Shown one piece after another: positions 35,872 to 61,135 of a stretch of 64,000 nucleotides of DNA. The position numbers and the translations under genes are program-made. Below the pieces are notes generated by a model. It was not told the DNA's origin. It was given only the letters and a program-made list of their open reading frames with translations, and made no database searches. The stretch is from positions 2,307-66,306 of the forward strand of contig CAYHWX010000003.1 in assembly GCA_964360245.1 (NCBI GenBank), in the 5' to 3' direction. Numbering within the stretch: the stretch's first letter is position 1; every line of letters starts with the position of its first letter. Origin of the DNA: an uncultured Vicingus sp. Its GTDB lineage: Bacteria; Bacteroidota; Bacteroidia; Flavobacteriales_E; Vicingaceae.

Positions 35872-35906
35872 TAACAAAAAACTCTAAACCTCGAACTCTA
35901 AACTTT
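35872..35906 (+). repeat. 7-nt-phased (A/G/T)AAC-NNN array (5 units) ending 6 nt before the start codon
   Basis: TAACAAA AAACTCT AAACCTC GAACTCT AAACTTT, with units starting at 35872, 35879, 35886, 35893 and 35900. Confidence 0.8.
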
Positions 35907-35911
35907 ATAAT

Positions 35912-37201
35912 ATGGCACAAGAAGCACAAAAAGAAAAGAGCATGGTTCTCCAAAAGGATATGATAAGTTCTCTTTTTAATGACCTTGCTAATGCAAAAGA
36001 ATTAGGTAAAAAAGTTTGTTATACTTTTATTCCTGGGAACCTTTCTGAATTAATTCGAACATTTGATATGCTTCCAGTTTACCCAGAAATTAATGCACTG
36101 CAAAGTGCTATGCGAAAAAAATCAGCAGCATATATTAAAGAAGCAGAAAGAAATGCACATTCTGAGGATGTATGTACTTATGTGAAATGCGATGTAGGAA
36201 TGTTAATGAAAGGAAACATCGGACCAACAGGTGAGAAAATTCCTGAGCCAGATATTCTTTTGTTAAGCTATACGGGATGTTTTACTTTTCTAAAATGGTT
36301 TGAAACCTTAAAAAGAGAATATCCAAATGCAAAAGTGATTATGGTTCATACACCCTATCAAGAGAATGCAGAGATGACTCCTCAAATGACCCAGTATATG
36401 GTTAAACAATTTAAAGAAGAAGTTATTCCTCAAATGGAAGCAGTGACTGGTATTAAATATGACGAGGAAAAATTAAAAAGACACCTAGGATTAGCTGCAG
36501 AAGCTGAAGATTTGATTGCTAAAATATTTGAAACTACAAAACATAGACCATCACCTATTGATGCCTATTTTGCAGGAGTATATTACATTGGTCCAATTAA
36601 TATCGGATTTAGAGGAACTCAACAAGCGGTAGATTACTACAAAGAGTTATTAAAAGAAATTCATATCAGAATAGAAAAAGGACTAGGTCCTATTACTCCA
36701 GAGGGAGAAATGAAAGAAGAAAAATATCGATTGGTTGTTGAAGGACCACCAAACTGGACACATTTCAGAGAATTTTGGAAAATTTTCTATGATATGGGAG
36801 CTGTAATTGTAGCTTCTTCTTATACAAAGGTTGGAGGAGTTTATGATTTAGGATGGAGACACGACCCAGAAAGACCTTTAGAAGCATTAGCTGAATATTG
36901 TATGAATTGTTACACCAATTTAAACATTCCTCAACGAATCAGTTTATTAAAAAAATGTATTGTTGATTATAAAGCTGACGGGTACATTACCAATTCAATT
37001 AAAAGTTGTAATTCTTTTTCAGCAGGGCAATTAGGAATGATGCGTGAAATTGAAGATAGCTTAGAAATACCTGTTGGCTTTATTGAATCTGATTTGGTTG
37101 ACCCACGTTATTTCTCTTATTCAAATATTAAAAATAGGTTAGAATCTTTTTTCCAAATGCTAGAACAGCGTAAAAAAATAGAAGCTAAAGAAACAGTTTA
37201 A
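35912..37201 (+). CDS. benzoyl-CoA reductase subunit B-like protein (BcrB/BadE family)
   Basis: 429 aa. VCYTFIPGNLSELIRTFDMLPVYPEINAL...EDVCTYVKCDVGM is typical of the BCR/HAD core subunit family. Confidence 0.65.
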   Translation: MAQEAQKEKSMVLQKDMISSLFNDLANAKELGKKVCYTFIPGNLSELIRTFDMLPVYPEINALQSAMRKKSAAYIKEAERNAHSEDVCTYVKCDVGMLMKGNIGPTGEKIPEPDILLLSYTGCFTFLKWFETLKREYPNAKVIMVHTPYQENAEMTPQMTQYMVKQFKEEVIPQMEAVTGIKYDEEKLKRHLGLAAEAEDLIAKIFETTKHRPSPIDAYFAGVYYIGPINIGFRGTQQAVDYYKELLKEIHIRIEKGLGPITPEGEMKEEKYRLVVEGPPNWTHFREFWKIFYDMGAVIVASSYTKVGGVYDLGWRHDPERPLEALAEYCMNCYTNLNIPQRISLLKKCIVDYKADGYITNSIKSCNSFSAGQLGMMREIEDSLEIPVGFIESDLVDPRYFSYSNIKNRLESFFQMLEQRKKIEAKETV

Positions 37202-37228
37202 TTATTTTAACGACACAAACATTTAACT

Positions 37229-38644
37229 ATGAAAAAATATTATTTAGGAATCGATTTAGGCTCAACTACTTCCAAAGCAGTTATCATTAACGAAAATGAT
37301 GAAATTATAGGAAGAGGAATAACTAACACCAGAGCTAATTATAAAGTTGCAGCTGATATAGCTCGTGAAGAAGCTATTTATGATGCTCGTTTTACTTTAT
37401 TAACCAATAAACTTCATGTTGAAATTGACTCTAAACCAGAGTTTAAAAAATACATGAAAGACCTAAGAAGTGTTTTTCAGTATGGACAATTTAAACGAAG
37501 AATGGATAGTTTAGAAAAAACCTTAAAGGAAACAGTTGATTCATACACTTATAGTAATAAAGATCAAGTTGCTAAGGAAATATTTAAGATTATAGAAGTT
37601 ATTCGTCCTCAAATTCGACATGAGTTTGTAAATGAAAACTTAGGATCTAAAAATCAATTTTTTAGAGATATTGTTAGCGAAAGATATAACAGCGAAGTTG
37701 AAAAAGCTGATAAAACACTTTTTGAACCTTTAATGTTAGCTTTTGATAAAAGTATTACTCCTGTAGAAAACGAAATGGTTCAATTTATCTTTAAAGAGTT
37801 AGTTGATGAATCAATGAAAATTCTAGAAGAGAAGTACAAAGGATTGGCTGATCAACCAAATGATGAAAACAAGGAAGATTGGTATTATGCTGAATTAAAC
37901 GCTGTAAAGGATAATTATAAAACTGTTGAAAGTACGCTAAGTAACCATATAGCATCTATTGCAAATGAAGATATTCATATAGCTAATATGGTTGGAACAG
38001 GGTATGGTCGTGCGTTGCTTCCATTTCCTGAAGACTGTATTAAATCTGAAATTCTTTGTCATGCTTTTGGAGCTCACGCTATTTTTCCAAATACTAGAAC
38101 TGTTTTAGATATTGGAGGGCAAGATACCAAAGCCATTCAAGTTGATAGTCACGGCTTAGTAACCAGTTTTCATATGAATGATAGATGTGCTGCAGGTTGT
38201 GGAAGATATTTAGGCTATATTGCCGATGAGTTTGGAATTTCATTAAATGAATTAGGTCCAGAAGCAATGAAATCAGATAAAGAAACAGTAATTTGTTCCA
38301 CTTGTACTGTATTTGCAGGTGCAGAGGTAAAAGAGTTGCTGCACAATGGAGAAGAAAGACCTAATATTTTAGCAGGATTGCATAAATCTATTGTTCAACG
38401 AGCGATGTCTTTAATTGCTCGCTCTGGAGGAGTAAAAAACGAGTTTACCTTCACAGGAGGTGTCGCTCGTAACCAAGCAGTATTAAAGTATGTAAAGCAA
38501 ATGGTTACCGAATCATACGGAGAAGTAACTATGAATATTCATACCGATTCAATATTTATGGGAGCATTGGGTGGAGCTATGTTCGCCTTAAGAAACATTG
38601 ATGTGGATTTGCCAACTAAACAAAAAGAAGAAAAAATAGCATAA
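37229..38644 (+). CDS. BcrA/BadF-like ATPase subunit (BadF/BadG/BcrA/BcrD family, long form)
   Basis: ASKHA N-terminus YYLGIDLGSTTSKAV, followed by a helical insertion of about 170 aa. The cluster-ligand motifs are MNDRCAAGCGRYL and CSTCTVFAGAEV. Confidence 0.7.
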   Translation: MKKYYLGIDLGSTTSKAVIINENDEIIGRGITNTRANYKVAADIAREEAIYDARFTLLTNKLHVEIDSKPEFKKYMKDLRSVFQYGQFKRRMDSLEKTLKETVDSYTYSNKDQVAKEIFKIIEVIRPQIRHEFVNENLGSKNQFFRDIVSERYNSEVEKADKTLFEPLMLAFDKSITPVENEMVQFIFKELVDESMKILEEKYKGLADQPNDENKEDWYYAELNAVKDNYKTVESTLSNHIASIANEDIHIANMVGTGYGRALLPFPEDCIKSEILCHAFGAHAIFPNTRTVLDIGGQDTKAIQVDSHGLVTSFHMNDRCAAGCGRYLGYIADEFGISLNELGPEAMKSDKETVICSTCTVFAGAEVKELLHNGEERPNILAGLHKSIVQRAMSLIARSGGVKNEFTFTGGVARNQAVLKYVKQMVTESYGEVTMNIHTDSIFMGALGGAMFALRNIDVDLPTKQKEEKIA

Positions 38645-38663
38645 TAATTTAATATTTAAAATA

Positions 38664-39518
38664 ATGAGTAGCACTATATATACAATGGGAATCGACGTAG
38701 GTGGAAGTTACGTTAAAGGCGTAATTATGACCTACGACAATGAAACAGGTAATCATAAAATCGTTGATAAACAAACCGAAAAAATTAGAAAAAGAGATCC
38801 AAAAGATGTGGTTGTTGATACGATTGATATGTTATTAGAGCGTAATCATTTAAATTACGATAAAGACATCGCTTATCTTGCTTCCACAGGAGAAGGTGAA
38901 ATGGTTACTAAAAAAACAGGACATTTTTATGGTATGACAACTCACTCACGTGGAGGAATATTTTTTGCACCTGGGGCAAAAACTGTTGTCGATTTGGGAG
39001 GGTTATATGTTAGAGCCATAAAAATTGACGAAAGAGGAAAAGTTATCGATTATAAAATGACTGGTCAATGTGCCTCAGGCTCTGGTCAATTTATTGAAAA
39101 TATATCTAGGTATTTGGGCTTAGCTATTGAAGAAGTTGGTCCAATTTCTTTAAAAGCAGATCACCCAGAAGTACCTTCAGGAATTTGTGCAGTTTTAGCA
39201 GAAACAGATGTAATTAATTTGGTATCGAAAGGACTCTCAACTGCTAATATAGTGAAAGGAATTAATTTATCTATTGCAGGTAGAGCCGTAAAATTATTGG
39301 GAGCTCTTAAAGCAGAATCTCCAATTGCTTTGGTAGGAGGAATGGGAATGAATGTGGGTATGATACAAGCAATTAGAGAGCTATCTCAAGAAAAAGGAAT
39401 TGCAGATTTAGAATTTGTTGCTCATCCTGATGCTATTTATTCTGGTGCTGTTGGTGCTGCTCTTTGGGGAGGTTTTAGATATTATAAATTGAAAGAAAAA
39501 GGTGCTGTGATTGTATAA
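38664..39518 (+). CDS. BcrD/BadG-like ATPase subunit (BadF/BadG/BcrA/BcrD family, short form)
   Basis: 284 aa with MGIDVGGSYVKGV, MTGQCASGSGQFIENI and SGICAVLAETDVI. Confidence 0.7.
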   Translation: MSSTIYTMGIDVGGSYVKGVIMTYDNETGNHKIVDKQTEKIRKRDPKDVVVDTIDMLLERNHLNYDKDIAYLASTGEGEMVTKKTGHFYGMTTHSRGGIFFAPGAKTVVDLGGLYVRAIKIDERGKVIDYKMTGQCASGSGQFIENISRYLGLAIEEVGPISLKADHPEVPSGICAVLAETDVINLVSKGLSTANIVKGINLSIAGRAVKLLGALKAESPIALVGGMGMNVGMIQAIRELSQEKGIADLEFVAHPDAIYSGAVGAALWGGFRYYKLKEKGAVIV

Positions 39519-39542
39519 ATAATAATTCAAATATCTTTATTG

Positions 39543-41678: not shown

Positions 41679-41704
41679 AAATTAATCAATTTGTTAGTTC
41701 GAGT

Positions 41705-41725
41705 GCCACACCTTTATTGTGTGGC
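41705..41725 (+). other. hairpin GCCACAC-cctttatt... GTGTGGC in the spacer after the acyl-CoA synthetase gene
   Basis: 7-bp G/C-containing stem with a 7-nt loop, flanked by a 5-bp outer stem (AGTTC/GAACT). No U-tract follows. Confidence 0.35.
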
Positions 41726-41751
41726 GTATCGAGAACTTAAAAATAAAAACT

Positions 41752-42987: not shown

Positions 42988-42991
42988 GTTA

Positions 42992-43456
42992 ATGAAAAAA
43001 AGTAACAACATACCAAATTTTAATCCATCAATTGACGGAGGAAAACTTTCTGCTCAAGAAATTACTACTTTACTAAAAACAACTTGTAATTATGTTGATT
43101 ATGTTGAATTTACACAAAATAATAAAGAGCAATTGGTAGCGTTAATTTTCCCTAATAAGCAACTATTAAAAAACCCTGATTATCAAAAAACCCCTGAAGA
43201 AGGATGTTTTTGTCCACGAAATTTGGATGAGGTTGGCAGATGTTTAACAGGTTGTTTAAAAAAGGCAAATGCTGATTTAACCAACAAAAAAACGCCTATT
43301 TCTTTAGCTATTATTGTTGGTGAAAAATATACTGCTGAAAATGGAAAATTAACCGATTTAGGAGTCGAAAAAATTAAAAACATCATTGACCAACATAAAA
43401 ACCATTCCGCTGTTGATGATGTGTATATTATTGATTTGGAAACAACAATGGGCTAA
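42992..43456 (+). CDS. hypothetical Cys-rich protein
   Basis: 154 aa with a CxC-x9-C-x3-C motif (EEGCFCPRNLDEVGRCLTGC). Tightly packed between the two neighbouring genes. Confidence 0.45.
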   Translation: MKKSNNIPNFNPSIDGGKLSAQEITTLLKTTCNYVDYVEFTQNNKEQLVALIFPNKQLLKNPDYQKTPEEGCFCPRNLDEVGRCLTGCLKKANADLTNKKTPISLAIIVGEKYTAENGKLTDLGVEKIKNIIDQHKNHSAVDDVYIIDLETTMG

Positions 43457-43479: not shown

Positions 43480-45348
43480 ATGAGTAAAAAAAATAAAATA
43501 CGTGTTGGCGTTATCGGTCTTGGACCTGTTGGGATGATATTGGCTGTAAAATTACAGGAAGCAGGTTGTGAGGTGGCTTTGTGCGAAGTAAACGAAGTAA
43601 AAGCCAATAAAATTAAAACCGAAGGATTGATACTTGAAAATGTAATCCAGCAAAAAGCAAAATTCGACAAAGTACACACTTCTATTGCAGAACTTGAAGG
43701 TTGGGATGCTGATTATTTGTTTTTTGCATTAAAGTCAAACCAAACTGCTATTGCTGTTACACAATCTCAAATCTTGAATACCGAAAAATTAACTGTAATT
43801 TCTGCACAAAATGGAATAGACGTTGAACAATTATTGGTAGCTGGCTTTGGAGAAAATAAAACCATGCGTTTTGTAGTTAATTTTGCTGGAAATTCTTCCT
43901 CACCAAATACTACAAAAGTTACTTTTTTTACACCACCAAACTATATCGGTTCTATTAATGATACGTGTGCAAATAAAGCAAAAGAAATTGCCGATTTATT
44001 AACTTCAGTTTCTTTAGATACAAAAGCTACCGACTCTTTTGAATTGCTAAAAAGAATTTGGGAAAAAACAATCTTAAACGCAGCACTTAGTCCGTTATGT
44101 GGTGTAAGTCGTTTAACTATGGCTGAAGCCATGAGCGACCACGACACTGTTGAATTAATTGAACAAATAATAAAAGAAGGAATTGATGTAGCTGAAGCAG
44201 AAAAAATTCGTTTTCCCGATGATTTTGTTCGTCAATGTATGCGTTATCTCAAAAAAGGTGGCGACCACTTTCCTTCACTTGCCGTAGATTTAATAAATAA
44301 TCGTCCTACAGAAATTGATTACTTTAATGGTAAAATTGTAGAATACGGTCGTAAACATTACGTACGAACTTCATTAAATTTGGCATTTACCAACATGGTG
44401 AAAGCCATGACCAACAAAAATATTGTTTCCAGAATTCCTGGTGCTACAGGCGATGTTAATAAAAAAATTCTCGGCAAAGGATTAATAAACAAAGAATACG
44501 ATCCAACTTCACATAAAAATGAACAATGCTTTTTAGGTATCGATTTGGGTTCTGCTTATGCTAAATTTAGCATTGTTGACGAAAAAGGAACAATTATTTT
44601 TAGATACTTTTTGCCATCGCTGGGTAACGATAAACAAGCGTTTAAGAATGTAATGCAAACCATTGCTACCAACTTTAATATCAAATACAGTTGTGCTACA
44701 GGTTATGGTCGAAAACATTTCACAGAAACTGATATTGTTAAAACTGAAATAAACTGTGCTGCAGTAGGCGTTTCATATTTTCATAAAGGCGAAAAAAATA
44801 TTATTGACATCGGAGGTGAAGACATTAAAGTGATTCATTGTGATAAAGATAATAATGTGGCAAACTTTTACATGAACGACAAGTGTGCAGCAGGAACTGG
44901 CTCATTTTTAGCCGAAATTGCAGAAAGAGTAAATATCAATATTGCAGACATGAGTAGCTTAGCATCACTCTCAAAATACGACAAAGAATTGAATAGTTTT
45001 TGTACTGTTTTTGCCAAAACAGAAATTATGAATTGGATTTTTGATGGCATGTCGTTAGAGGATATTTCTAGAGGTATTTATATTTCTATTGCCAACAAAG
45101 TAGCTAAAATGCGTTTAGATGCTGGTGTTCCAACTTTTATGATTGGCGGCGTTGTGGAGCATCATCCTTATCTAAAAGACCTTTTAAACGAAAAATTTAA
45201 TAAAAACATTCAAATTATTGAACATCCGCAATATACTGTATCTTTTGGTGCAGCAATTGTTGCTATGCAAAATTTTAATAAGGGGAAAGGGGCAGACGAA
45301 AGGGACGAGGGAAAGGTAAATCTCGAAACTCTAATTCCCAAACTCTAA
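43480..45348 (+). CDS. fusion protein: ketopantoate-reductase (ApbA/PanE) family oxidoreductase + BadF/BadG/BcrA/BcrD-type activase ATPase
   Basis: The N-terminal 310 aa carry VGVIGLGPVG, IWEKTILNA and SLAVDLINNRPTEIDYFNG (PanE signature). After a linker of about 45 aa, the C-terminal 270 aa carry LGIDLGSAYAKF, MNDKCAAGTGSFLAEI and NSFCTVFAKTEIM (HgdC-like activator). Confidence 0.7.
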   Translation: MSKKNKIRVGVIGLGPVGMILAVKLQEAGCEVALCEVNEVKANKIKTEGLILENVIQQKAKFDKVHTSIAELEGWDADYLFFALKSNQTAIAVTQSQILNTEKLTVISAQNGIDVEQLLVAGFGENKTMRFVVNFAGNSSSPNTTKVTFFTPPNYIGSINDTCANKAKEIADLLTSVSLDTKATDSFELLKRIWEKTILNAALSPLCGVSRLTMAEAMSDHDTVELIEQIIKEGIDVAEAEKIRFPDDFVRQCMRYLKKGGDHFPSLAVDLINNRPTEIDYFNGKIVEYGRKHYVRTSLNLAFTNMVKAMTNKNIVSRIPGATGDVNKKILGKGLINKEYDPTSHKNEQCFLGIDLGSAYAKFSIVDEKGTIIFRYFLPSLGNDKQAFKNVMQTIATNFNIKYSCATGYGRKHFTETDIVKTEINCAAVGVSYFHKGEKNIIDIGGEDIKVIHCDKDNNVANFYMNDKCAAGTGSFLAEIAERVNINIADMSSLASLSKYDKELNSFCTVFAKTEIMNWIFDGMSLEDISRGIYISIANKVAKMRLDAGVPTFMIGGVVEHHPYLKDLLNEKFNKNIQIIEHPQYTVSFGAAIVAMQNFNKGKGADERDEGKVNLETLIPKL

Positions 45349-45374
45349 ACACGAAACATTGAACTTTAAACTTA
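45326..45374 (+). repeat. 7-nt-phased AAAC-NNN array (7 units) spanning the stop codon of the fusion gene
   Basis: AAACTCT AATTCCC AAACTCT AAACACG AAACATT GAACTTT AAACTTA, preceded by a purine-rich stretch (45281-45320). Confidence 0.8.
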
Positions 45375-47401: not shown

Positions 47402-47494
47402 GGAAGATGGGAGTCGGAAGACCGAAGATGGGAGTTGGAGGGGTGAGTGAAAGGGGCAATGGCAAAAAAACTTTGCGTCTTTGCGTCTTTGCGA
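47402..47494 (+). repeat. composite low-complexity spacer: 21-nt-period purine repeat plus three tandem CTTTGCG(T/A) octamers
   Basis: GAAGATGGGAGT occurs at 47403-47414 and again at 47424-47435. CTTTGCGT CTTTGCGT CTTTGCGA lies at 47471-47494, followed by AAACTCTAAAC at 47511-47521. Confidence 0.8.
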
Positions 47495-47528
47495 GAAAAT
47501 AATTAGCTAGAAACTCTAAACTAAACAG

Positions 47529-49685
47529 ATGAAATACAAAATTGGCATAGATGTAGGAGGAACCTTTACCGACTTTTTTTTAGTCGCTGATAATGGGGAT
47601 TCGTTAATTCATAAAACGCTTTCTACCCCTCAAGATTCTTCAGAAGGATTTATTACCGGGTTAAAGGAAATGGCAGAGAAGCTAAATTTGCCGGTTGCTG
47701 AGTTTATTGACAACATCGATACCATTGTTCATGGAACTACTGTGGCCACCAATGCATTATTGACGTTAGGCGGAGCAAAAACTGCTTTAATTACCACTAA
47801 AGGGTTTAGAGATGCGTTAGAAATGCGAAGAGGTATTCGCGAAGAACGATATGATAATCATTACAAAAACGTAACACCTTTAGTTCCCAGATATTTACGA
47901 TACACAATAAATGAAAGAGTTGATGCGATTGGAACTATTTTACACTCAATTGATTTTACTGAATTAGATGCTATCGTTTCAAAAATAAAAGAGGAAGACG
48001 TAAAAGCAGTTGCCATCTGTTTTATGAATTCTTATTTGAACAGTGAAAATGAAAAAATAGCCACTGAATATCTTAGAAAAGCATTACCAAACACTTATAT
48101 TTCTGCATCTTATGAAGTTTTGCCATCTGTTCGTTTTTACGAAAGGGTTAGTACTACCGTAGTAAATGCATACATTGGTGTAGTAGTAGATTCCTATTTA
48201 AAATCATTATTAGCAAAACTCAAAAAACTCAATTTCAACGGTAAATTGATGATTATGCAATCGAACGGAGGCGTTGTAACTCCCGAAATTGCAGGTAAAA
48301 TTGCTGCCGTAGCCGTTCTTTCCGGTCCTGCTGCTGCACCTATTGCTGGTGCATATTATGCCAATTTATTGGGATATGATAATTGCATTACCATGGATAT
48401 GGGAGGCACCAGTTTTGATGCTTCTTTGGTGGTAAACAAACAGTGTGTTACCAGTACCTATGCCGATATTGATAGATACCGAGTGGCATTACCCACATTA
48501 GATATTATTACCATTGGTGCAGGTGGAGGAAGTATTGGATGGGTGGACAATGGAGGATTATTGCAAATGGGACCCAAAAGTGCAGGTTCTTTACCCGGAC
48601 CAATTTCATACCATAGAGGTGGTGAAAAACCTACTTGTACTGATGCTGATTTAATACTTGGATATCTAGACCCCAATTTTTTTGCCGGAGGTAAGTATAA
48701 ACTGAACAAAGAAAAAACAATAGAAGTAACAGAAAAAAGCCTAGGAAAAAATCTTGGTTTAAATGCTGTAGAAGTTGCTGCAGGAATGTACCGTGTCATC
48801 AACATGAACATGGCTCAAGGTGTTCGTCAGGTTTCGGTAGAAAGAGGTTACGACCCAAGAGAATTTTTAATGATTTGTGCAGGAGGAGCAGGTTCAATTC
48901 ATGCAGGTGAAATTTGTCGTGAGTTAGAAATACCAATGTTTGTTGTTCCAAGTGTAGCACCAATTTTTTGTGCAGCGGGCATGTTGTTAGGCGATTTAAA
49001 ACACGATTATGTTCGGTCGTACATGACAAAATTCTCTGGTTTAGATAAAGTTGCTTTCTTGAAATTGTACGATGAAATGAAAGCTGAATCTGTCAAAACA
49101 TTGATTGCTGAAGGAATTACAGAAGATAAAATCCAATTTATACCATCATTAGATTTAAGGTACATTGGTCAATACCACGAAGTTCCTTTAGAAGTTTCGA
49201 TGGACGATGTTTATGGTTTTAATCTGGAAGCCATAAAAAATGCGTTCCATAAAGAACACAGTCGTCAATTTGGTTATGATTTAAAAGTAGAAGGCACAGA
49301 ATTAGAAGTCATTAACATTCGATTTAGGGCAGTTGGCATAACTGAAAAACCACATTCATTATCTGGGAACATCACAAAAGGAGCTAATACATTACAAGAA
49401 GCTTTGAAAGGAAGAAGAATGGCTTATGTACCCGAAAAAAATGAAATGCAGGAAGTTCCTGTTTACGATGGTGACATCTTAAACAGCAATTTTAAAATAA
49501 ATGGGCCAGCCATTATCGAACAAGTAAATACCACTGTTTTTTTAGGCGAAAACTATAACTGCGAAACAGGAATTGGAGGTGCATTTATTGTTTATAACAA
49601 AATTTTAATGCCTGATGGGTTTAAAAAGTTTAAAGTTTCGAGTTCAGAGTTAAAGAAACTCGAAACTTTAAACACGAAACTCTAA
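47529..49685 (+). CDS. hydantoinase/oxoprolinase family protein, A-type (HyuA-like)
   Basis: N-terminus KIGIDVGGTFTDFF and the internal motif MDMGGTSFD. 718 aa. Confidence 0.85.
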   Translation: MKYKIGIDVGGTFTDFFLVADNGDSLIHKTLSTPQDSSEGFITGLKEMAEKLNLPVAEFIDNIDTIVHGTTVATNALLTLGGAKTALITTKGFRDALEMRRGIREERYDNHYKNVTPLVPRYLRYTINERVDAIGTILHSIDFTELDAIVSKIKEEDVKAVAICFMNSYLNSENEKIATEYLRKALPNTYISASYEVLPSVRFYERVSTTVVNAYIGVVVDSYLKSLLAKLKKLNFNGKLMIMQSNGGVVTPEIAGKIAAVAVLSGPAAAPIAGAYYANLLGYDNCITMDMGGTSFDASLVVNKQCVTSTYADIDRYRVALPTLDIITIGAGGGSIGWVDNGGLLQMGPKSAGSLPGPISYHRGGEKPTCTDADLILGYLDPNFFAGGKYKLNKEKTIEVTEKSLGKNLGLNAVEVAAGMYRVINMNMAQGVRQVSVERGYDPREFLMICAGGAGSIHAGEICRELEIPMFVVPSVAPIFCAAGMLLGDLKHDYVRSYMTKFSGLDKVAFLKLYDEMKAESVKTLIAEGITEDKIQFIPSLDLRYIGQYHEVPLEVSMDDVYGFNLEAIKNAFHKEHSRQFGYDLKVEGTELEVINIRFRAVGITEKPHSLSGNITKGANTLQEALKGRRMAYVPEKNEMQEVPVYDGDILNSNFKINGPAIIEQVNTTVFLGENYNCETGIGGAFIVYNKILMPDGFKKFKVSSSELKKLETLNTKL
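49628..49673 (+). repeat. perfect 17-bp inverted repeat (hairpin) at the 3' end of the HyuA-like gene
   Basis: GTTTAAAGTTTCGAGTT (49628-49644) is the exact reverse complement of AACTCGAAACTTTAAAC (49657-49673). The loop is 12 nt. Confidence 0.9.
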
Positions 49686-49696
49686 ACTAAAAACTG
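49656..49696 (+). repeat. 7-nt-phased AAAC-NNN array (6 units) running into the next start codon
   Basis: AAACTCG AAACTTT AAACACG AAACTCT AAACTAA AAACTG, then the ATG at 49697. Confidence 0.85.
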
Positions 49697-51413: not shown

Positions 51414-52976
51414 ATGAGAAGACTAATAATAAATCTTTTTTGCCTCATCTCAATTACTTCAATGGCACAAACTACCTTTCAAAAAACTTATTTAAGCGTA
51501 GATTATGATTATTCTTATGCCAGAGAAATTATTCAGACATCTGATGGGGGATATGCAACAATTGGTGAGACAACATATCCTGTTACTTATGATAGTGATG
51601 TGCTACTTCACAAATTTGACTTAAACGGAAATTTAATGTGGACTAAAACTTATGGAGGTACGCTTGACGAATATGGAGAAAGTGTTCAGCAAACTTCTGA
51701 TGGAGGATATATTATTTCAGGGTTTAAAGGAGGGATTCTGTCAGGTGATGATTTTTTCATTATCAAAACAAATAGTATTGGGGATACAATATGGACTAAA
51801 ATAATTGGTGGCGCTTCATCAAGCGGTGAATGGTCATACTCGATAATTGAGACCTCAACTGGTGATTTTGTTGCTTGTGGTTATACATACAGTTATGGGC
51901 AAGGAAGTTCTGATATATATGTGATAAAATTAAATTCATTAGGAACAATACAATGGTCAAAAACCTACGGAGATATTGATTCAGATAATGGAAATCAAAT
52001 TAGAGAAACCTCAGATGGTGGTTATATTATTACAGGCGATTCTGAAAACTCTACAAATTATAAAGATGATGCATTTCTGTTAAAGATTGATGTAAATGGA
52101 ACTTTACTTTGGAATAAAACTTACGGTACATTTGCTGAAGATGATAGAGTTAGTGCATTATATCAGTTACCTGCACCTGACAATGGTTTTGTGATTGTTG
52201 GAGAAACAACTAGTTCAGGGGCAACTAATGATTTTTATGTGGTGAGAACAAATGCTGCAGGTGTTGAACAATGGTCTTATGCTTATGATGGAGGAGGAAC
52301 AGACTATGCAGATGCTGTATGTTCTAATGGGAGTGGTGGGTTTATTATTTCTGGGTCAACATATAGTTTTGGTGGTGATGATGCTCTTCTTGTAAATATT
52401 GATGCTAATGGAAATGTAGTATGGAGTAAAATATATGGAATTCCGGGAGCAGCTTATGCTAGAAGTGTTATTCAAACTGCTGATGGCGGATTTGCATTTT
52501 CTGGTGAAGTAAGTGATAATGTTTTCATTGTTAAAATGGATGCTTCCGGAAATAGTGGTTGCAATCAAAACAATGTAACAGTTACTAAATCAGCAATTTC
52601 AAATGTTTCTAATTCTACTTTTGTTGCTGGAAATGGTGGTGTTGAATATAATGGAACTATAGATCTCCATACTCGTTCAGTTAGTCAAACAATTATTTGT
52701 GTAAATGTATCTGTAAACGAAATCGCTAAAGATGCAAATATCAATATTTATCCAAATCCTTTTTCTGTTTCTACAACTGTTAAATTTTTAAATTTTACTG
52801 GGGATATTTATCGATTAGATCTTTTCGATTTTACTGGAAAACTTGTTCATTCAATTACAGATGTAAAAGATAATCGAGTAATACTAAGTAGAGAGAACAT
52901 AAATAGTGGAATATATTTAATACAATTGAAAGATAATAATGGATTGGTTTATTCGAAAAAAGTGATTATTGAATAA
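51414..52976 (+). CDS. secreted repeat protein with T9SS C-terminal sorting domain
   Basis: Signal peptide MRRLIINLFCLISITSMAQ (ATG at 51414). About seven repeats of roughly 50 aa are built around (T/S)(S/A)DGG(Y/F). The C-terminal NIYPNPF...IYLIQL...KKVIIE is the type A sorting-domain pattern. Confidence 0.75.
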   Translation: MRRLIINLFCLISITSMAQTTFQKTYLSVDYDYSYAREIIQTSDGGYATIGETTYPVTYDSDVLLHKFDLNGNLMWTKTYGGTLDEYGESVQQTSDGGYIISGFKGGILSGDDFFIIKTNSIGDTIWTKIIGGASSSGEWSYSIIETSTGDFVACGYTYSYGQGSSDIYVIKLNSLGTIQWSKTYGDIDSDNGNQIRETSDGGYIITGDSENSTNYKDDAFLLKIDVNGTLLWNKTYGTFAEDDRVSALYQLPAPDNGFVIVGETTSSGATNDFYVVRTNAAGVEQWSYAYDGGGTDYADAVCSNGSGGFIISGSTYSFGGDDALLVNIDANGNVVWSKIYGIPGAAYARSVIQTADGGFAFSGEVSDNVFIVKMDASGNSGCNQNNVTVTKSAISNVSNSTFVAGNGGVEYNGTIDLHTRSVSQTIICVNVSVNEIAKDANINIYPNPFSVSTTVKFLNFTGDIYRLDLFDFTGKLVHSITDVKDNRVILSRENINSGIYLIQLKDNNGLVYSKKVIIE

Positions 52977-53005
52977 ACTTCTAAACGCATAAACTCTATA
53001 CTAAA

Positions 53006-53410
53006 ATGAATACACACGAAACAATATTACCCGAAGGTTGGTCAACTCCTAAAGGATATGCGAATGGAATATTAGCTGCAAAAGGAAGAACGTTGTTTTT
53101 AGCCGGACAAGTTGGATGGTCTCCCGAAGAGAAATTTGCAAGTGAGAAATTGGTTCCTCAATTTGAACAAGCGTTAAAAAATATTGTTGCTATTGTTGAA
53201 AAAGCAGGAGGAAAACCTACAGACATCTGCAAAATGACCTGTTTCTGTAAAGATAGAACTCAATATTTAGCAACTAGAAGTGAGCTTGGTACAATATGGA
53301 AAAATATTATGGGAAAACATTATCCATGCATGAGTATGATTTTCGTAGTGGATTTACTAGACCATCCGGCATTAATAGAAATCGAAGCAACAGCAGTTAT
53401 TGCTGATTAG
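53006..53410 (+). CDS. RidA/YjgF/UK114 family protein
   Basis: 134 aa with YANGILAAKGRTLFLAGQVG and C-terminal LIEIEATAV. Confidence 0.75.
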   Translation: MNTHETILPEGWSTPKGYANGILAAKGRTLFLAGQVGWSPEEKFASEKLVPQFEQALKNIVAIVEKAGGKPTDICKMTCFCKDRTQYLATRSELGTIWKNIMGKHYPCMSMIFVVDLLDHPALIEIEATAVIAD

Positions 53411-53457
53411 TTAAGAGTTTAAAGTTATGGCAATAGTTAAAAAATTTGAATTAGACA

Positions 53458-53492
53458 AAACTCGAAACAGTAAACTCAAAACTCTAAACTAG
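53458..53492 (+). repeat. 7-nt-phased AAAC-NNN array (5 units) upstream of the acyl-CoA dehydrogenase gene
   Basis: AAACTCG AAACAGT AAACTCA AAACTCT AAACTAG. An inverted GTTT-phased fragment (GAGTTTAAAGTT) lies at 53415-53426. Confidence 0.8.
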
Positions 53493-54624: not shown

Positions 54625-55745
54625 AAATTGAACAAAAAGAGAATCAACTTATTATGAATGGTTCTGAATTGATAATAGAATCATTAGCTAGGTCTGGTGC
54701 AGACGTTTTTATCGGTTACCCTATTACACCTGCAAACCTTCTATATTCTTATTCAAAAGAACGCTTCCCTTCTTTTTTTGCAGCACCTGATGAAATTTCT
54801 ACACTTCAATGGATGTGTGGTTTTTCAACTACTGGGAAATTTCCTGTAACTGCTACATCATTTCCAGGTTTTGCCTTAATGATTGAATCGATAAACATGG
54901 CATATATGATGGAATTGCCCATGTTAATCGTTCTCGTTCAGAGACTTGGACCAGCAACTGGCAGTGCGACATGTGGTGCACAAGGTGATTTAGCTATGCT
55001 TACTGGTGCAATATCTGGTGGATTTTCTCTGCCAGTTATTAGTGTAAGTAACATGAAAGATTGTTGGGATTTATCAAACAAAGCAATGAAAATGGCTATT
55101 GATTTGAGAACTCCAGTTGTTTTACTTACTTCCAAAGAAGAAATAATGACGCTATCAAGTTTTGCTATTTCACAACTTCAAGAACTAACAATTATTGAAC
55201 GAAAACAGTATTCTTCTACTGAAATATTTGTGCCATATAAAATTAATAAATCACTTGTTCCTGAATTTTTACCTGTGGGCGATACAAAACATCAAGTTCG
55301 ATTTACTGCATCAACACATGATCAAAAAGGAATTATTCAAAACACTTCAAAAGAAGCAATTGAAAATACTAAACGATTAGAACTCAAACATCTTCTCAAC
55401 CTCGAAAATCATTTATATTACGAATACGATGCTCAAACTGGTGCAGATACACTTTTAATTTCATATGGAATCACAGCTTCATCTGGTAGAGAAGCAGTTA
55501 GAAATTTAAGAGAAAAAGGTGAAAAAATTTCACATTTAATACCAAAAACCTTGTTGCCAGTTCCTCCTATCTATTTTGATATTATGGATAAATATAAAAA
55601 CATAGTGATTGCCGAAGAAAACCTTTCTGGTCAATATAAAAAGATTTTGTTTGGAGAATTTGGGAATAAAAAAGTTTGTGGTGTTAATGGAATTGCAGAA
55701 ATGATTACTCCATCAAAAATAATGGAAGAAATTTTAGCTAAATAA
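54621..55745 (+). CDS. 2-oxoacid:ferredoxin oxidoreductase alpha subunit (KorA/OorA-like, without gamma domain)
   Basis: NGSELIIESLARSGADVFIGYPITPAN...FPGFALM...GPATGSAT. The start overlaps the ACAD stop (ATGA). Confidence 0.75.
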   Translation: MKIEQKENQLIMNGSELIIESLARSGADVFIGYPITPANLLYSYSKERFPSFFAAPDEISTLQWMCGFSTTGKFPVTATSFPGFALMIESINMAYMMELPMLIVLVQRLGPATGSATCGAQGDLAMLTGAISGGFSLPVISVSNMKDCWDLSNKAMKMAIDLRTPVVLLTSKEEIMTLSSFAISQLQELTIIERKQYSSTEIFVPYKINKSLVPEFLPVGDTKHQVRFTASTHDQKGIIQNTSKEAIENTKRLELKHLLNLENHLYYEYDAQTGADTLLISYGITASSGREAVRNLREKGEKISHLIPKTLLPVPPIYFDIMDKYKNIVIAEENLSGQYKKILFGEFGNKKVCGVNGIAEMITPSKIMEEILAK

Positions 55746-57097: not shown

Positions 57098-58498
57098 ATG
57101 AGTCAGTTAAAATCATACGGAATTGCTTTGCCTCATTTTAGGATTGAGGACGCCATTCTTCACCCAAAAGGAAAGAAAAGTATTACTAAATCAGTTTGTT
57201 TCGCTGATGAAGATTTGATTACACTTGCTTTTCAGGCAGCAGCAAACTTGAAACTTGAAACATTAAACTCTAAACCGGATGGTGTCCTATTTGCAACATC
57301 AACTTCAGTTTTTACCAACCGCTATCATGCTTCTTTTTTAGCAGATTTATTAAATCTTCCGCAGGGAATTTTAGCTCTTGATTTTACCAACTCAACTCGT
57401 AGTGGAACTGATGCCTTTTTATTGGCAAATACCTTGATTGATTCTGGAAAATACAAAAACATATTAGTTGTAGCTGCTGATGTTCATTTTCCTGCTATCG
57501 GAAAAGAACTTTCGACTACTTTCGGTCATGCTGCTTGTGCAATATTATTAAGCAATGAAAAAGGGATTGCAGAAATTACAGAAGCAAAATCTTACAGTTC
57601 TTCACTGGCTGAAGAGTTTTCTTACAAAGGAAATAATATTCAATACGACCCACGATTTAGTCGTGATGCAGGGTTTAAAACCAATTTGACTTCTTCACTA
57701 AAAGATTTTATTACCAATCCAAAACAGTATGATGCAGTCATTCTAAATTCACTTTATGCTCGAATGGCAGGAGGAATATTTGCAAAAGCAGGTTTTGAAG
57801 AAACACAATTTGCAAAAGATACACTCTCGTCTAAAATTGGAAATACAGGTGCTGCTCATGCATTGTTGTTACTCATTAATGAATTGGAATCAACTCCCTT
57901 CCCGAAGGGAAGGATCGGGGATGGGCTTATTTTGTTAGCTGATTACACCAATGGAACAAACTTTTTTGAAATTAAAACTCATGAAACTAATCATGAAAAA
58001 ACATTACAGAATCAATTAAAAAACAACGAATTAATTCAAACCTATCAGGATTATTTATTGTTACGTAAAGCTGGAAATTTCAAATCAGCAAAATACAAAA
58101 CCAAAGAAATGTTCTCATCAGAAATGATGCAAGAGCGTGAAAAAGACACTTTACAATATTTGAAAGGATTAAAATGTGATGAATGCGGAACAATATATTA
58201 TTTAAAATCGACTCGTTGTAAAAAATGTAAAGCCGATAAATTCTCAGAAGTTCAATTATCATCGACAGGAACTGTATATACCTTAACAAGCGAACATTAT
58301 TTTCCGAGTTCATTTCCTCCAATTCACATGTTGGTAATTGATTTGGATGGCGGTGGAAGGGTTACTGTTCAGCAAACGGACACGATGTATCCAGAAAACA
58401 ATAAAATTGAAATCGGCTCAAAAGTGAAACTAGTATTACGAAAAATGATTGAAAACGACGAAAAACCAAATTATTTCTGGAAAGCAATACCATTATGA
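57098..58498 (+). CDS. HMG-CoA-synthase-like thiolase-fold domain fused to a DUF35 (Zn-ribbon + OB-fold) domain
   Basis: The N-terminal roughly 330 aa align by eye to archaeal-type HMGCS (SYGIALPHFRI, ADEDLITLAFQAA, IGNTGAAHALLLL). The C-terminus has CDECGTIYYLKSTRCKKC plus an OB-like segment. Confidence 0.6.
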   Translation: MSQLKSYGIALPHFRIEDAILHPKGKKSITKSVCFADEDLITLAFQAAANLKLETLNSKPDGVLFATSTSVFTNRYHASFLADLLNLPQGILALDFTNSTRSGTDAFLLANTLIDSGKYKNILVVAADVHFPAIGKELSTTFGHAACAILLSNEKGIAEITEAKSYSSSLAEEFSYKGNNIQYDPRFSRDAGFKTNLTSSLKDFITNPKQYDAVILNSLYARMAGGIFAKAGFEETQFAKDTLSSKIGNTGAAHALLLLINELESTPFPKGRIGDGLILLADYTNGTNFFEIKTHETNHEKTLQNQLKNNELIQTYQDYLLLRKAGNFKSAKYKTKEMFSSEMMQEREKDTLQYLKGLKCDECGTIYYLKSTRCKKCKADKFSEVQLSSTGTVYTLTSEHYFPSSFPPIHMLVIDLDGGGRVTVQQTDTMYPENNKIEIGSKVKLVLRKMIENDEKPNYFWKAIPL

Positions 58499-59693: not shown

Positions 59694-60677
59694 ATGACAA
59701 ATAAAAAAACAATCAAATTAGCAATTTTAGTATTGCTTTCATTCGTTTCGTCTTTTGGCTTTTCTCAAGTTGAACCTGAAAATGGTAGTGTTTCAATAAC
59801 ACCTACTGTAAATTCCGATAATGGGAATACAGAAACTAGACACATATTTAAGCGAAAAGGAAATTTATATTTCTATTGGGGCTACCCAAAAGCTTATTTT
59901 AGCAAAAGTGATATTCATTTAACTGGAGACATATATGATTTTACAATTACCGACATAACAGCGACAAGTGATCAAGTAAAGCATGATTTTACTACTTACA
60001 TTAATCCTGGCACATTCAGTATCCCAATGTTTAACTGGAGAGTCGGATATTTTATTAATGACAAAACGTTTTTAACATTTGGGCATGATCATATGAAATA
60101 TGGCATGGATAAACAAGCAACATATCTTACTGGAGAAATTACTAGTGGAGAATTCATGGGTACTTATGATAATACTATGGTCGTTGTTGGGGAGGAATCT
60201 GAGGAGTCAGTTCTTCATACCGACGATTTGGACTCTTTACCTGGTGAATTTGTTGAAGAATTTGAACATTGTGATGGATTAAATGATTTTGGATTTGAAA
60301 TAGGACGTTTGGAGCAATTTTGGATTTCAAAAAATGGTAAAAATGCTCTCTCAGCTCAAGGTACATTTGGTTTGGGTATGATGATTCCGGATTCGGAAGT
60401 AGAAGTACTCGAACGAGAACCAAAACATAACAATGACGAAGGAAGAAAATCGTTTCATTTAGCAGGATACAGTATTTCTGCAAGTGTTGGGTTACAAGTT
60501 GATTTTTTTAAACACTTTTTTATTTTGGGAAAACTAAAAGCAGGATACATCAATATGCCTGACATCAATACATCTCTTGAAGGAGGGAAAGCAAGTCAAC
60601 ATTTTAATTTTCTAGAGCCTATTCTTGCTGTTGGGTATTCAGGCTGTATTAGCAGAAAGAAAAAAGAAAATAAATAA
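59694..60677 (+). CDS. hypothetical exported protein, possibly outer membrane
   Basis: Signal peptide MTNKKTIKLAILVLLSFVSSFGFSQ. No family recognised. Confidence 0.5.
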   Translation: MTNKKTIKLAILVLLSFVSSFGFSQVEPENGSVSITPTVNSDNGNTETRHIFKRKGNLYFYWGYPKAYFSKSDIHLTGDIYDFTITDITATSDQVKHDFTTYINPGTFSIPMFNWRVGYFINDKTFLTFGHDHMKYGMDKQATYLTGEITSGEFMGTYDNTMVVVGEESEESVLHTDDLDSLPGEFVEEFEHCDGLNDFGFEIGRLEQFWISKNGKNALSAQGTFGLGMMIPDSEVEVLEREPKHNNDEGRKSFHLAGYSISASVGLQVDFFKHFFILGKLKAGYINMPDINTSLEGGKASQHFNFLEPILAVGYSGCISRKKKENK

Positions 60678-60704
60678 ATAAACATAAAATCTTAGTTAAA
60701 AAAT

Positions 60705-61082
60705 ATGAAAGTATTATTAAGTAAACCTGGATTAGACGGACACGATGTAGGAGTTAAAGTTCTTGCACATGGCTTAATTGAAGCCGATTTTGAAGTAGTT
60801 TATACTGGATTGAGAAAAACCATTGATGAAATCGTGCAAATGGCAATAGAAAATAAAGTAGATGTCATTGGACTGTCTATTCTTTCAGGAACACATTTAT
60901 TTCTTGCTCAGAAAATGAAAGAAGTAATGGATGCAAATAAACTAGATATTCCTTGGTTTGTTGGAGGAAATGTCCCACCTCTAGACGTTGCAAAATTGGA
61001 AAAAATTGGTGCTTCAAAAGCTTTCGCAACAAGCACAAAAGTGGTTGATGTAGTTAATTATTTTAAAGAAATGAAAAAGTGA
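60705..61082 (+). CDS. B12-binding small subunit of an acyl-CoA mutase
   Basis: 125 aa with the DxHxxG motif (GLDGHDVGVKVL) and the Rossmann-like cobalamin-binding fold pattern. Confidence 0.8.
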   Translation: MKVLLSKPGLDGHDVGVKVLAHGLIEADFEVVYTGLRKTIDEIVQMAIENKVDVIGLSILSGTHLFLAQKMKEVMDANKLDIPWFVGGNVPPLDVAKLEKIGASKAFATSTKVVDVVNYFKEMKK

Positions 61083-61087
61083 AGGTG

Positions 61088-61135
61088 AAATCAGTAACTC
61101 TAAACTAGTAACTCCAAACACGAAACTCTAAAAAA
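61088..61135 (+). repeat. 7-nt-phased (A/T)AAC-NNN array (7 units) ending at the mutase large-subunit start codon
   Basis: AAATCAG TAACTCT AAACTAG TAACTCC AAACACG AAACTCT AAAAAA. It shares the 17-mer AAACACGAAACTCTAAA with 49670-49686. Confidence 0.85.

Follow-up and report, generated by a model that had tools for sequence, protein, structure and literature searches.

AAAC-core heptad arrays adjoining start codons in a Bacteroidota operon and their possible role as generic leaders for Shine-Dalgarno-independent initiation

The window, by which we mean the whole analyzed stretch of 64,000 nt, contains a family of heptanucleotide arrays of the form AAAC-NNN, and these arrays are real, mutually related elements that are sense-oriented and adjoin start codons. 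Judged from their sequence, they most likely act as A-rich, G-poor ribosome landing strips, and a dedicated switch for regulation is the less likely role. The fuller explanation, that the arrays are degenerate heptads born by slippage and filtered as generic landing or spacer leaders for initiation independent of a Shine-Dalgarno (SD) sequence, has in our view about an even chance of being correct. The best reading of the family as a whole is that it belongs to the class described for the TAACTGA repeats (MacGregor 2015, PMC4679880).

All five arrays listed in an earlier note on this DNA are present on the plus strand. A five-unit array at 35872..35906, which contains a single G in its 35 bases and no ATG, ends 5 nt before ATG 35912 of an HGD-D family gene; a seven-unit array with two degenerate units at 45326..45374 ends 6 nt before ATG 45381; a six-unit array at 49656..49696 directly adjoins ATG 49697 (gap 0); a five-unit array at 53458..53492 ends 4 nt before ATG 53497 of an acyl-CoA dehydrogenase gene; and a seven-unit array with mixed TAAC and AAAC cores at 61088..61135 adjoins ATG 61136 of a methylmalonyl-CoA mutase-like gene. 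Both shorter copies were recovered as well, namely the short array AAACTCTAAACTAAACA at 47511..47527 (plus strand, 1 nt before ATG 47529) and the less regular one at 52975..53000 (plus strand, 5 nt before ATG 53006). The gap between array and ATG measures 0–6 nt for all intergenic arrays, in keeping with the 0–7 nt claimed previously. The spacer of the array at 47511..47527 holds further short-period repeats at 47417..47493 (plus strand), consisting of purine-rich GGAAGACC/GAAGATGG units and three copies of CTTTGCGT with a period of 8; the two are predicted to be capable of pairing with each other, and the fold of this repeat spacer is not significant (dG -25.8, z -0.39).

The earlier note missed a five-unit array at 57244..57275 (plus strand) that lies within ORF 57098-58498, coding for a thiolase-like/OB-fold protein. 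This array translates as NLKLETLNSK in a hypervariable loop, and homologues of the thiolase-like protein carry heptad-encoded loop inserts of variable length. Furthermore, ORF 43480-45348 enters the array at 45326..45374 and terminates on an array TAA, and ORF 47529-49685 (HydA) spans the hairpin described below and terminates at 49683-49685 within the array at 49656..49696. Hence, these two arrays are not purely spacer. A small TAAC-AAT heptad run with two AAC units plus GAC is located outside the array block at 22070-22093.

Strict runs of one AAC per 7 nt with at least five units occur six times on the plus strand between 35.8 and 61.2 kb (35873-35903, 45341-45371, 49657-49694 with six units, 53459-53489, 57245-57275 and 61096-61126), where about 0.0002 are expected from an AAC frequency of 0.020. 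Shuffling the window 50 times gave zero runs with at least four units, and among the scanned periods of 4–12 none except 7 exceeded three units. A search for (AAACNNN)x4+AAAC with at most two mismatches returned 11 matches against 0.01 expected, all of them on the plus strand and within 35.8–61.2 kb, and no match in the first 35 kb. The relatedness of the units, which had been noticed before, is borne out by the 17-mer AAACACGAAACTCTAAA being identical at 49670-49686 and 61116-61132 and by the presence of CTCGAAAC at three and of AAACTCTAAAC at six array loci. Unit order and length differ in every window array. We also agree that a 7-nt period disfavors simple DNA bending.

The arrays comprise 49.5% A, 23% C, 22% T and 5.3% G compared to 18% G in the window, are free of ATG and contain stop codons in two to three frames. 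The leaders of the window genes are SD-less, and G makes up 9.9% of positions -30 to -1. At these positions AAAC is 2.1-fold over-represented (27 observed vs 13 expected) across the 45 genes not flagged for at least three phased units, a set that includes two short arrays, and GTTT shows no over-representation in the same 45 genes. For five of the six spacer arrays the predicted RNA fold does not go beyond that of shuffled sequences (z -0.6 to +1.07; e.g. +0.28 for 35872..35906, +1.07 for 45326..45374 and +0.17 for 61088..61135). The predicted accessibility of the initiation region (-20 to +15) is modestly higher for array genes (0.635 vs 0.520, p 0.011), with array genes and the array-less genes of their operon showing no difference (p 0.35). 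Initiation in Bacteroidia does not use SD and relies on adenines ahead of the start, weak structure and a depletion of AUG (Baez 2019, PMC6847099). The arrays resemble such regions in being A-rich, weakly structured, AUG-depleted and devoid of SD, whereas periodic repeats are not part of that signature, and with a variable ATG gap of 0–6 nt the heptad phase keeps no fixed register to its positions -3, -6, -12 and -13.

Inverted partner arms are found just upstream of two of the eight window arrays. The GTTT-type arm at 49628..49651 (listed on the plus strand) has four phased units on the minus strand and lies in the 3′ end of ORF 47529-49685. Its portion 49628-49644 forms with 49657-49673 a 17-nt inverted repeat of 100% complementarity, and the resulting hairpin 49628-49673 is the sole significant fold (dG -25.1, z -3.9, 0/200 shuffles as stable). 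The first 17 nt of the array at 49656..49696 constitute its 3′ arm, while the prediction leaves the final three heptads and the ATG unpaired. The partial GTTT-type arm at 53410..53426 (plus strand) begins at the stop codon of ORF 53006-53410, and its predicted long-range pairing with 53479-53493 is not significant (z -0.6). No U-tract and no terminator-like site was found at any window array. Two related loci, L122 and L125, possess strong hairpins ordered stop-(GTTT arm)-loop-(AAAC arm)-ATG, and L125 shares the layout of inverted arm and array seen at 53410..53492. In a further locus, L318, the hairpin arm carries two uncompensated changes, and compensatory change does not preserve the hairpin there.

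Close relatives (HydB 97% at the amino acid level) have at the same junctions other units, other copy numbers, a GGAAGAC heptad family or no spacer at all. Thus, units or copy numbers are altered or the spacer is absent in L122 and L125; the array at 53458..53492 has a counterpart in L125, and the spacer is missing in L122. The HydA-HydB junction of L122 and L123 is built from GGAAGAC heptads, and GAAGACC heptads reappear in spacers of the relatives. Since purine-rich heptads can replace AAAC at the same junction, AAAC is not required there. In the distant orthologous operons L127 and L129 the genes overlap without spacers. Near-identical assemblies (99.7–99.8%) display zero copy-number differences, i.e. 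ongoing slippage was not directly observed. A composite element, in which a GC-rich hairpin is followed by AAAC heptads, is near-identical in an L125 spacer and an L128 coding loop and absent from the window. By these comparisons, the arrays do not qualify as conserved regulatory sequence.

AAAC-NNN heptad arrays are widespread in Bacteroidota genomes and are found in other phyla too, with copy numbers of 2–7 in the window and up to 21 elsewhere; Rfam gave no match for them. The idea of a shared leader cis-element put forward earlier fits as far as an SD-less initiation leader is concerned, but not as a family special to this operon. The arrays of Bacteroidota genomes obey a rule of polarity: among 69 Bacteroidota loci, for which the GTDB-locus gene calls were crude (longest ORFs, start at the first ATG), it is the AAAC 3′ end that lies closer to a gene in 42 of 50 arrays (p ~1e-6), and this bias is absent from non-Bacteroidota arrays (16/34). 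Where an array of the Bacteroidota loci has an inverted partner, the partner is located 5′ of it in 16 of 17 cases; palindromes in these loci are type-I in 13 instances and type-II in one. Within convergent spacers, which have no start codon, arrays still adjoin the gene for which they read as GTTT (10/11), a polarity that filtering at initiation regions does not explain. In Omnitrophota, long heptad palindromes occur between housekeeping genes.

We propose that tandem duplication or slippage, and sometimes inverted duplication, would generate at the DNA level heptanucleotide simple-sequence repeats in which the AAAC core is kept and three bases are variable. This Flavobacteriales-like lineage may have gained them recently as intercistronic filler; the genes of distant relatives overlap. 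Selection would then work as a filter by which the AAAC strand alone survives beside a start codon, since its mRNA is A-rich, G-poor, AUG-free, stop-rich and unstructured. SD-independent initiation in Bacteroidia depends on these properties, and the arrays could serve it as generic modules for ribosome landing and spacing, so that translation of the downstream cistron can begin independently. Inverted GTTT copies would be tolerated only in the part of the spacer most remote from the start codon, beside the preceding stop codon, where they may base-pair with the proximal array units to form an intercistronic hairpin and leave the last units and the AUG single-stranded.

Directional mutation adding units at the AAAC 3′ end until a coding boundary is reached might produce the polarity on neutral simple-sequence junk that plays no part in expression, an account that we consider rather unlikely but worth taking seriously. 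It would accommodate the fast turnover with heptad families interchangeable at one junction, the arrays in ORF tails and a coding loop, the uncompensated L318 arm, the missing spacers of distant operons, the lack of an accessibility advantage inside the operon and the polarity at stop codons of convergent genes. However, even genes without a long array show an excess of AAAC ahead of their starts, the core is kept while three bases vary although pure slippage would yield perfect units, only Bacteroidota show the polarity, and polar growth has no known mechanism. That the arrays serve instead as the binding platform of a multimeric or multi-domain RNA-binding factor, which reads the 4-nt core at 7-nt spacing and controls initiation post-transcriptionally, appears improbable to us; ribosomal protein bS1, a cold-shock-domain protein or a TRAP/HutP-like oligomer would be candidates. 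HutP of Bacillus binds UAG-N4 repeats with a period of 7, and TRAP/HutP sites are matched in repeat number to the oligomer and conserved, along with a cognate protein, at particular operons. The arrays share with these sites a short conserved core at fixed spacing in 5′ leader or intercistronic RNA, a variable spacer of constant length and a location that overlaps the ribosome-binding region, and their unit vocabulary recurs in many taxa; S1, Csp or CsrA have been suggested for the TAACTGA repeats (MacGregor 2015, PMC4679880). Unlike TRAP/HutP sites, the window arrays have neither an oligomer-matched repeat number, as copy number is unconstrained, nor conservation in close relatives, where unrelated heptads replace them, nor an identified gene for a cognate protein; moreover, the downstream genes are unrelated and Rfam offers no match.

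The GTTT/AAAC hairpins could alternatively be the functional unit, acting as stabilizer of the upstream mRNA, processing site or attenuator, or in translation coupling, with unpaired arrays as decayed halves. The perfect 17-bp hairpin at 49628-49673, its strong equivalents in L122 and L125, the excess of type-I palindromes and the Omnitrophota palindromes point in this direction, but with so few partner arms, one significant fold, no terminator-like site, no compensatory change in L318 and the HydA ORF passing through the hairpin we regard it as very unlikely. Copies of a REP/MITE-like mobile repeat spreading through the operon, as the earlier note considered, would agree with the lineage-specific gain of spacers, the 17-mer common to two arrays and the composite element of L125 and L128. 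The enterobacterial REP unit is palindromic, conserved and constant in length, and REP/BIME palindromes are likewise short, hairpin-capable repeats of operon spacers, whereas the window arrays are variable tandem repeats mostly without a partner arm. As they also lack a conserved full-length unit, terminal inverted repeats and conserved flanks, differ from each other in unit order and length and do not include the composite element, and as the 17-mer recurs in unrelated phyla (GC 0.33–0.67), which a limited vocabulary of units would lead one to expect, only the lineage-specific gain stands and mobility seems extremely improbable.

Our preferred reading as slippage-born landing leaders has its closest precedents among known short-period repeats. 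Long simple-sequence repeats with 5–11-nt units occur in prokaryotes (Mrazek et al. 2007, as summarized in PMC4679880), and heptamer repeats near start codons in cyanobacteria (Pradhan et al. 2022 preprint, 10.1101/2022.06.06.494920). Among these intergenic repeats heptanucleotide units are the most frequent, slippage is the proposed origin, and a regulatory effect is suspected but unproven for those near starts or promoters; they are mostly perfect copies of one unit, whereas the window arrays are sufficiently old or constrained for all but the core to have diverged. In Beggiatoaceae, cyanobacteria and some Bacteroidetes, TAACTGA heptamers directly precede start codons (MacGregor 2015, PMC4679880). 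Both families have a 7-nt unit with an xAAC core in few tandem copies (2–7 in the window, 2–6 for TAACTGA), are mostly intergenic and forward, sit a few nucleotides from the start in SD-less leaders, contain forward-frame stop codons, lack intrinsic RNA structure and occasionally occur inside ORFs, and for TAACTGA, too, a translational role is proposed only. The window units differ in being degenerate, with only AAAC (sometimes TAAC or GAAC) kept and TAACTGA not being the unit; GTTT arms and hairpins are frequent for AAAC arrays, whereas the BOGUAY genome has a single indirect repeat, and the window arrays lie within an operon, between cistrons.

Re-reading of the loci confirmed the five arrays of AAAC-NNN heptads that the earlier note had described in this block. 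A mechanical search of the window for AAC recurring every 7 nt returned six runs of at least five units, all on the + strand (35873–35903, 45341–45371, 49657–49694, 53459–53489, 57245–57275 and 61096–61126), where about 0.0002 such runs are expected by chance given an AAC frequency of 0.020. Shuffled sequence never yielded even a 4-unit run, and the other periods from 4 to 12 reached at most three units, runs of 5–6 units being confined to period 7. TRF reported periods of 7, 14 and 21 at every array locus, and the pattern (AAACNNN)x4+AAAC with up to two mismatches gave 11 matches in the window against 0.01 expected, all of them within 35.8–61.2 kb. One array, at 57244–57275, was absent from the earlier list; it sits within the ORF 57098–58498 for a thiolase-like/OB-fold protein and encodes NLKLETLNSK. 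The units consist of AAAC, TAAC or GAAC followed by a variable NNN (TCT, TCG, ACG, TTT, TAG and others), and the 17-mer common to two arrays as well as the recurrence of CTCGAAAC and AAACTCTAAAC were borne out. The arrays contain 49.5% A, 23% C, 22% T and 5.3% G, compared to 18% G in the window, are free of ATG and interrupt two or three reading frames with stop codons. When the short copies at 47511–47527 and 52975–53000 are included, seven of the eight arrays are sense-oriented and end 0–6 nt from an ATG, in line with the proximity to start codons noted before, and the remaining one is intragenic. A weak relative (ATTAACA x3.4, that is, TAAC-AAT heptads) is present at 22070–22093, outside the catabolic block, in the 69-nt spacer preceding the ORF 22144–23637.

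The block is one long string of + strand genes, whose products fall into the 2-hydroxyacyl-CoA dehydratase/benzoyl-CoA reductase-like, ADP-forming CoA ligase, 3-hydroxyacyl-CoA dehydrogenase/enoyl-CoA hydratase, hydantoinase A and B, acyl-CoA dehydrogenase, 2-oxoacid:ferredoxin oxidoreductase, thiolase and B12-dependent mutase families. Close homologues belong to MAGs whose sources label them Vicingaceae, Flavobacteriales or Bacteroidetes, mostly ones from groundwater. The region 34648–63959 comprises three HGD-D/BcrAD sets (benzoyl-CoA-reductase or 2-hydroxyacyl-CoA-dehydratase-like), an acetone/acetophenone-carboxylase-like hydantoinase A/B, beta-oxidation enzymes, an OFOR, a B12 mutase and a T9SS-tailed protein. 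Upstream regions in the window are devoid of Shine-Dalgarno (SD) sequences, and G accounts for 9.9% of positions −30 to −1. The ORFs 43480–45348 and 47529–49685 extend into the arrays at 45326–45374 and 49656–49696, respectively, and stop on TAA codons of the arrays. Repeat DNA encodes the C-terminal tails of these two enzymes, which end in GKGADERDEGKVNLETLIPKL and KKFKVSSSELKKLETLNTKL. Since both proteins have other ends in relatives, their annotated C-termini in this clade depend on the repeats.

Two arrays are preceded by an inverted GTTT-type partial array, located just upstream at 49628–49651 and 53410–53426. The only perfect inverted repeat that we found pairs 17 nt at 49628–49644 with 49657–49673; as RNA, 49628–49673 is predicted to fold with −25 kcal/mol (z −3.9), leaving the last three heptads and the AUG unpaired. 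For the other five of the six spacers with arrays, the predicted fold does not exceed that of shuffles in stability, and structure at the arrays is predicted only where an upstream inverted arm is present. Searching the whole window against Rfam 15 at the gathering threshold retrieved two tRNAs only and no match at the arrays. No intrinsic terminator (a G+C-rich stem followed by a T run) was predicted at an array within 35000–54900, a stretch in which 11 such sites compare to 12.1 expected. Sigma-70-like sites, predicted with a tool that does not cover Bacteroidota promoters, were likewise missing at the arrays, with counts at shuffle level. The 129-nt spacer before hydantoinase A (47400–47500) holds repeats of another kind, namely the purine-rich units GGAAGACC and GAAGATGG and the octamer CTTTGCGT in three exact copies; these can pair with a dG of −25.8 that is not significant against shuffles. 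GAAGACC heptads reappear in relatives (L128:6053–6142 and the HydA tail of L122/L123).

We compared the block to orthologous operons of relatives. HydB is ~97% identical between the window and the loci L122 (GCA_964371285.1) and L125 (GCA_016183805.1), some shared spacers of which hold arrays, but with different units and copy numbers. Both loci contain clear hairpins of the layout stop-(GTTTnnn)n-loop-(nnnAAAC)n+m-ATG. The RidA-to-ACAD spacer, which holds an array in the window, measures 86 nt there and 93 nt in L125 and is absent from L122. At the HydA-HydB junction of L122 and its near-identical counterpart L123, heptads of the GGAAGAC type replace the AAAC heptads. (GAAGACC)n and (CCAATGA)n heptads occupy other spacers of the clade, and in the more distant L127 and L129 (71–72% identity of the thiolase-like protein) the genes are tightly packed or overlapping, without such spacers. 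Near-identical assemblies revealed no copy-number differences, the arrays of the window and L121 (99.7%) and those of L122 and L123 (99.8%) being identical, and neither comparison yielded direct evidence of slippage. Length differences within these pairs are restricted to N runs, i.e. scaffolding gaps (window 51848 versus L121; L122:21282 versus L123), one of which probably explains the split gene call of the T9SS-tailed ORF in L121. That gene (51381–52976) is inserted between HydB and RidA and is missing from L122 and L125. In L318, a 96% relative, the 5′ arm of the hairpin carries two uncompensated changes. Judged from these alignments, the arrays are a gain of the lineage that turns over at ~10% sequence divergence, and their sequence is not conserved. 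We also observed CCAATGA-type heptads directly before the CoA-transferase gene of three relatives (L125:15045–15115, L128:8024–8053 and L127:14616–14657); these place an ATG every 7 nt and so cover each reading frame shortly before the annotated start, an unexpected arrangement in a phylum described as poor in AUG around its start codons.

The intragenic array lies in a loop of the thiolase-like family that is hypervariable in length and free of inserts in its minimal form. This surface loop, around residues 50–60 of the 57098–58498 product and its homologues P0121–P0175, accommodates inserts of 0 to >35 residues, whose 7-residue periodicity (KLETLNSK, NFQFPISNFQ, NLKSQTSNLD, SSGVENSNLK) is that of translated heptad arrays. 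Inserts are encoded by heptad arrays of various unit types in many lineages; that of L127, for instance, reads AATTTCC AATTCCC AATTTCT and so on, giving NFQFPISKF, and that of L128 joins AAAC heptads onto the end of a GC-rich hairpin and is near-identical to a spacer element of L125. The composite repeat, CTCCCTCCCTTYGGGAGGGYYGGGGTGGGA plus AAAC heptads, is found in an intergenic spacer at L125:20821–20910 and in the thiolase-like coding loop at L128:1750–1830, a distribution suggestive of a degree of copy-and-paste mobility. The window lacks this repeat, and we did not use it to explain the arrays there.

The earlier note had treated the arrays as a family particular to this operon. While the observation itself held and its interpretation was supported in part, this specificity did not hold, since a GTDB scan of one genome per species with (AAACNNN)x4+AAAC returned at least 120 matching loci, with matching heptads across Bacteroidota. 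By record title, 69 among the matches listed belong to this phylum, including Prevotella, Paludibacteraceae, Muribaculaceae, Flavobacterium, Kordia, Chitinophagaceae, Pedobacter and others. Among the same matches, the Bacteroidota arrays resemble those of the window in that they are imperfect, with a constant AAAC core and three variable bases; cyanobacterial arrays, in contrast, are mostly perfect repeats. The unit order AACNNNAAACACGAAACTCTAAA of the window recurs at 74 metagenome loci with a GC content of 0.33 to 0.67, indicating that the same small unit vocabulary is used far beyond this lineage, and at least 120 loci on viral contigs, which bear no host labels, match the array pattern. 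Arrays of (CCCTAAA)n were also encountered, long and in some cases located at the end of a contig (L009, at a contig end of a Rhodothermales MAG, L055, L274, L285, L293 and L313); they match the plant/algal telomere repeat and may stem from contaminating eukaryotic DNA or from telomere-like ends that were binned with bacterial MAGs.

With crude gene calls (ORFs of at least 120 aa, overlaps resolved by length), 42 of 50 Bacteroidota arrays among the matches listed had the 3′ end of the AAAC strand closer to a neighbouring gene, the median distance being 14.5 nt for this end and 131 nt for the 5′ end (p ~1e-6). What the AAAC end abuts is either a same-strand start codon or, for genes on the opposite strand, the stop codon. 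Outside Bacteroidota, the arrays among these matches displayed no polarity bias (16 of 34). An inverted partner, defined as an exact complement of at least 10 nt no more than 200 nt away, was located on the 5′ side in 16 of the 17 partnered Bacteroidota arrays listed, and 13 type I palindromes (GTTT...AAAC) faced one of the opposite type. The window conforms to this rule, with GTTT arms after stop codons and AAAC arms before start codons. Long, nearly perfect type II palindromes of the reverse order were seen in the metagenome loci L252, L254, L257, L265, L268, L282, L288, L295, L297, L310, L317 and L319, in spacers that separate housekeeping genes (leuC-like, fabF, clpP, dnaE, cysS, fmt, argG). 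Their layout is stop codon, AAAC arm, small loop, GTTT arm, an SD-like AGGAGG at some loci, and start, with a predicted dG of −20 to −68 kcal/mol; the sources of FabF homologues at these loci name Candidatus Omnitrophica/Omnitrophota.

The arrays belong to a known class, heptanucleotide repeats at start codons. MacGregor (2015) reported direct repeats of the heptamer TAACTGA from Beggiatoaceae, cyanobacteria and five Bacteroidetes, mostly a few nt upstream of SD-less start codons, with forward-frame stop codons and without intrinsic structure, and proposed binding of S1, Csp or CsrA or a translational role (PMC4679880). As relayed there, Mrazek et al. (2007) found heptanucleotide units to be the commonest among long prokaryotic simple-sequence repeats and named polymerase slippage as a possible origin. 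Heptamer repeats near start codons have also been reported in a Nostoc preprint, with unclear regulatory effects (10.1101/2022.06.06.494920). The window arrays share with TAACTGA the tandem direct 7-nt unit, an intergenic position and forward orientation only a few nt from a start codon, the occasional intragenic copy (one of eight in the window) and a repeat that is itself without intrinsic RNA structure in predicted folds of five of six spacers. They differ by their degenerate units, none of which in the window is TAACTGA, by frequent inverted arms and by a phylum-specific polarity; degenerate AAAC-NNN arrays and their polarity in Bacteroidota were not found described in the literature searched. 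Baez et al. (2019, PMC6847099) show that adenines at the upstream positions −3, −6, −12 and −13 tune initiation in Flavobacterium together with low structure and a depletion of AUG, and the window arrays, A-rich, G-poor, ATG-free and with fold z-scores of ~0 or above, resemble such SD-independent regions of Bacteroidia.

We consider it an even bet that the arrays are simple-sequence repeats made at the DNA level and filtered by selection. Heptad inserts in coding loops argue that such arrays originate in the DNA itself, at any place that tolerates them. Selection would then act as a filter, with only the AAAC strand tolerated or favoured beside a start codon, where it would supply the mRNA with an A-rich, G-poor, AUG-free and unstructured leader for SD-independent initiation, and GTTT copies would persist only at the stop-proximal end, able to pair with part of the array. 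Support for the filter beyond the arrays comes from 45 genes unflagged for three or more phased units, in which AAAC is 2.1-fold enriched at −30 to −1. Against it stand a predicted accessibility of the array starts that is slightly higher than the window average but not higher than that of operon neighbours, which suggests a small gain at best, the capacity of another heptad family to stand in for AAAC, and the polarity at convergent gene ends, which the filter leaves unexplained. Neutral repeats that grow directionally are a less probable though credible account; in that case the arrays would still mark a lineage-specific mutational process making heptanucleotide repeats.

A dedicated RNA-binding platform of the TRAP/HutP kind appears rather improbable, as the arrays present a short core at fixed spacing, AAAC every 7 nt, but vary in unit number (2–7 in the window, 5–21 at other loci among the matches listed) and occupy sites that are not conserved in L122, L125 or L127. 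That the hairpins are the functional unit, as the 49628–49673 fold might suggest, we regard as quite unlikely given the five spacers that fold like shuffled sequence. A mobile REP/MITE-like repeat, put forward in the earlier note, is the most doubtful of these accounts: unit order and length differ among arrays, there is one perfect inverted repeat only, and orthologous spacers differ by degrees, without the contrast of occupied and empty sites. Bending of the DNA and binding of a transcription factor were both rejected because the arrays lie between closely spaced cistrons and often overlap ORF ends. Complementarity of AAACTCT to the 16S 5′ end (AGAGUUU) and a likeness to the T7 epsilon enhancer were considered and dropped, since the variable NNN makes fixed pairing unlikely. 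Loading of Rho at a rut-like site, C-rich and G-poor, was a further candidate role.

Going beyond repeats filtered by selection, we venture, as a long shot, that AAAC arrays may be a phylum-wide orientation-constrained cis-element in type I spacers (GUUU arm after the stop, AAAC arm before the start), read by a general factor, for which bS1, the 30S subunit itself and a dedicated RNA-binding protein would be candidates, to recruit ribosomes or couple neighbouring cistrons. They would then be a functional substitute for Shine-Dalgarno pairing and translational coupling in polycistronic mRNAs, with the reverse type II in SD-using Omnitrophota. For annotation, the arrays bring in stop codons, shift ORF ends either way and put 7-residue-periodic peptides into tolerant loops. 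Start-codon choice without Shine-Dalgarno sequences in Bacteroidia is partly understood, the known factors being upstream adenines, low structure and AUG depletion, and modular AAAC arrays on the initiation region together with a phylum-specific strand rule offer natural test cases. Array number, phase and orientation can be altered in cultured carriers, and the scan loci among the matches listed include Kordia algicida, several Flavobacterium species, Pedobacter and Niastella.
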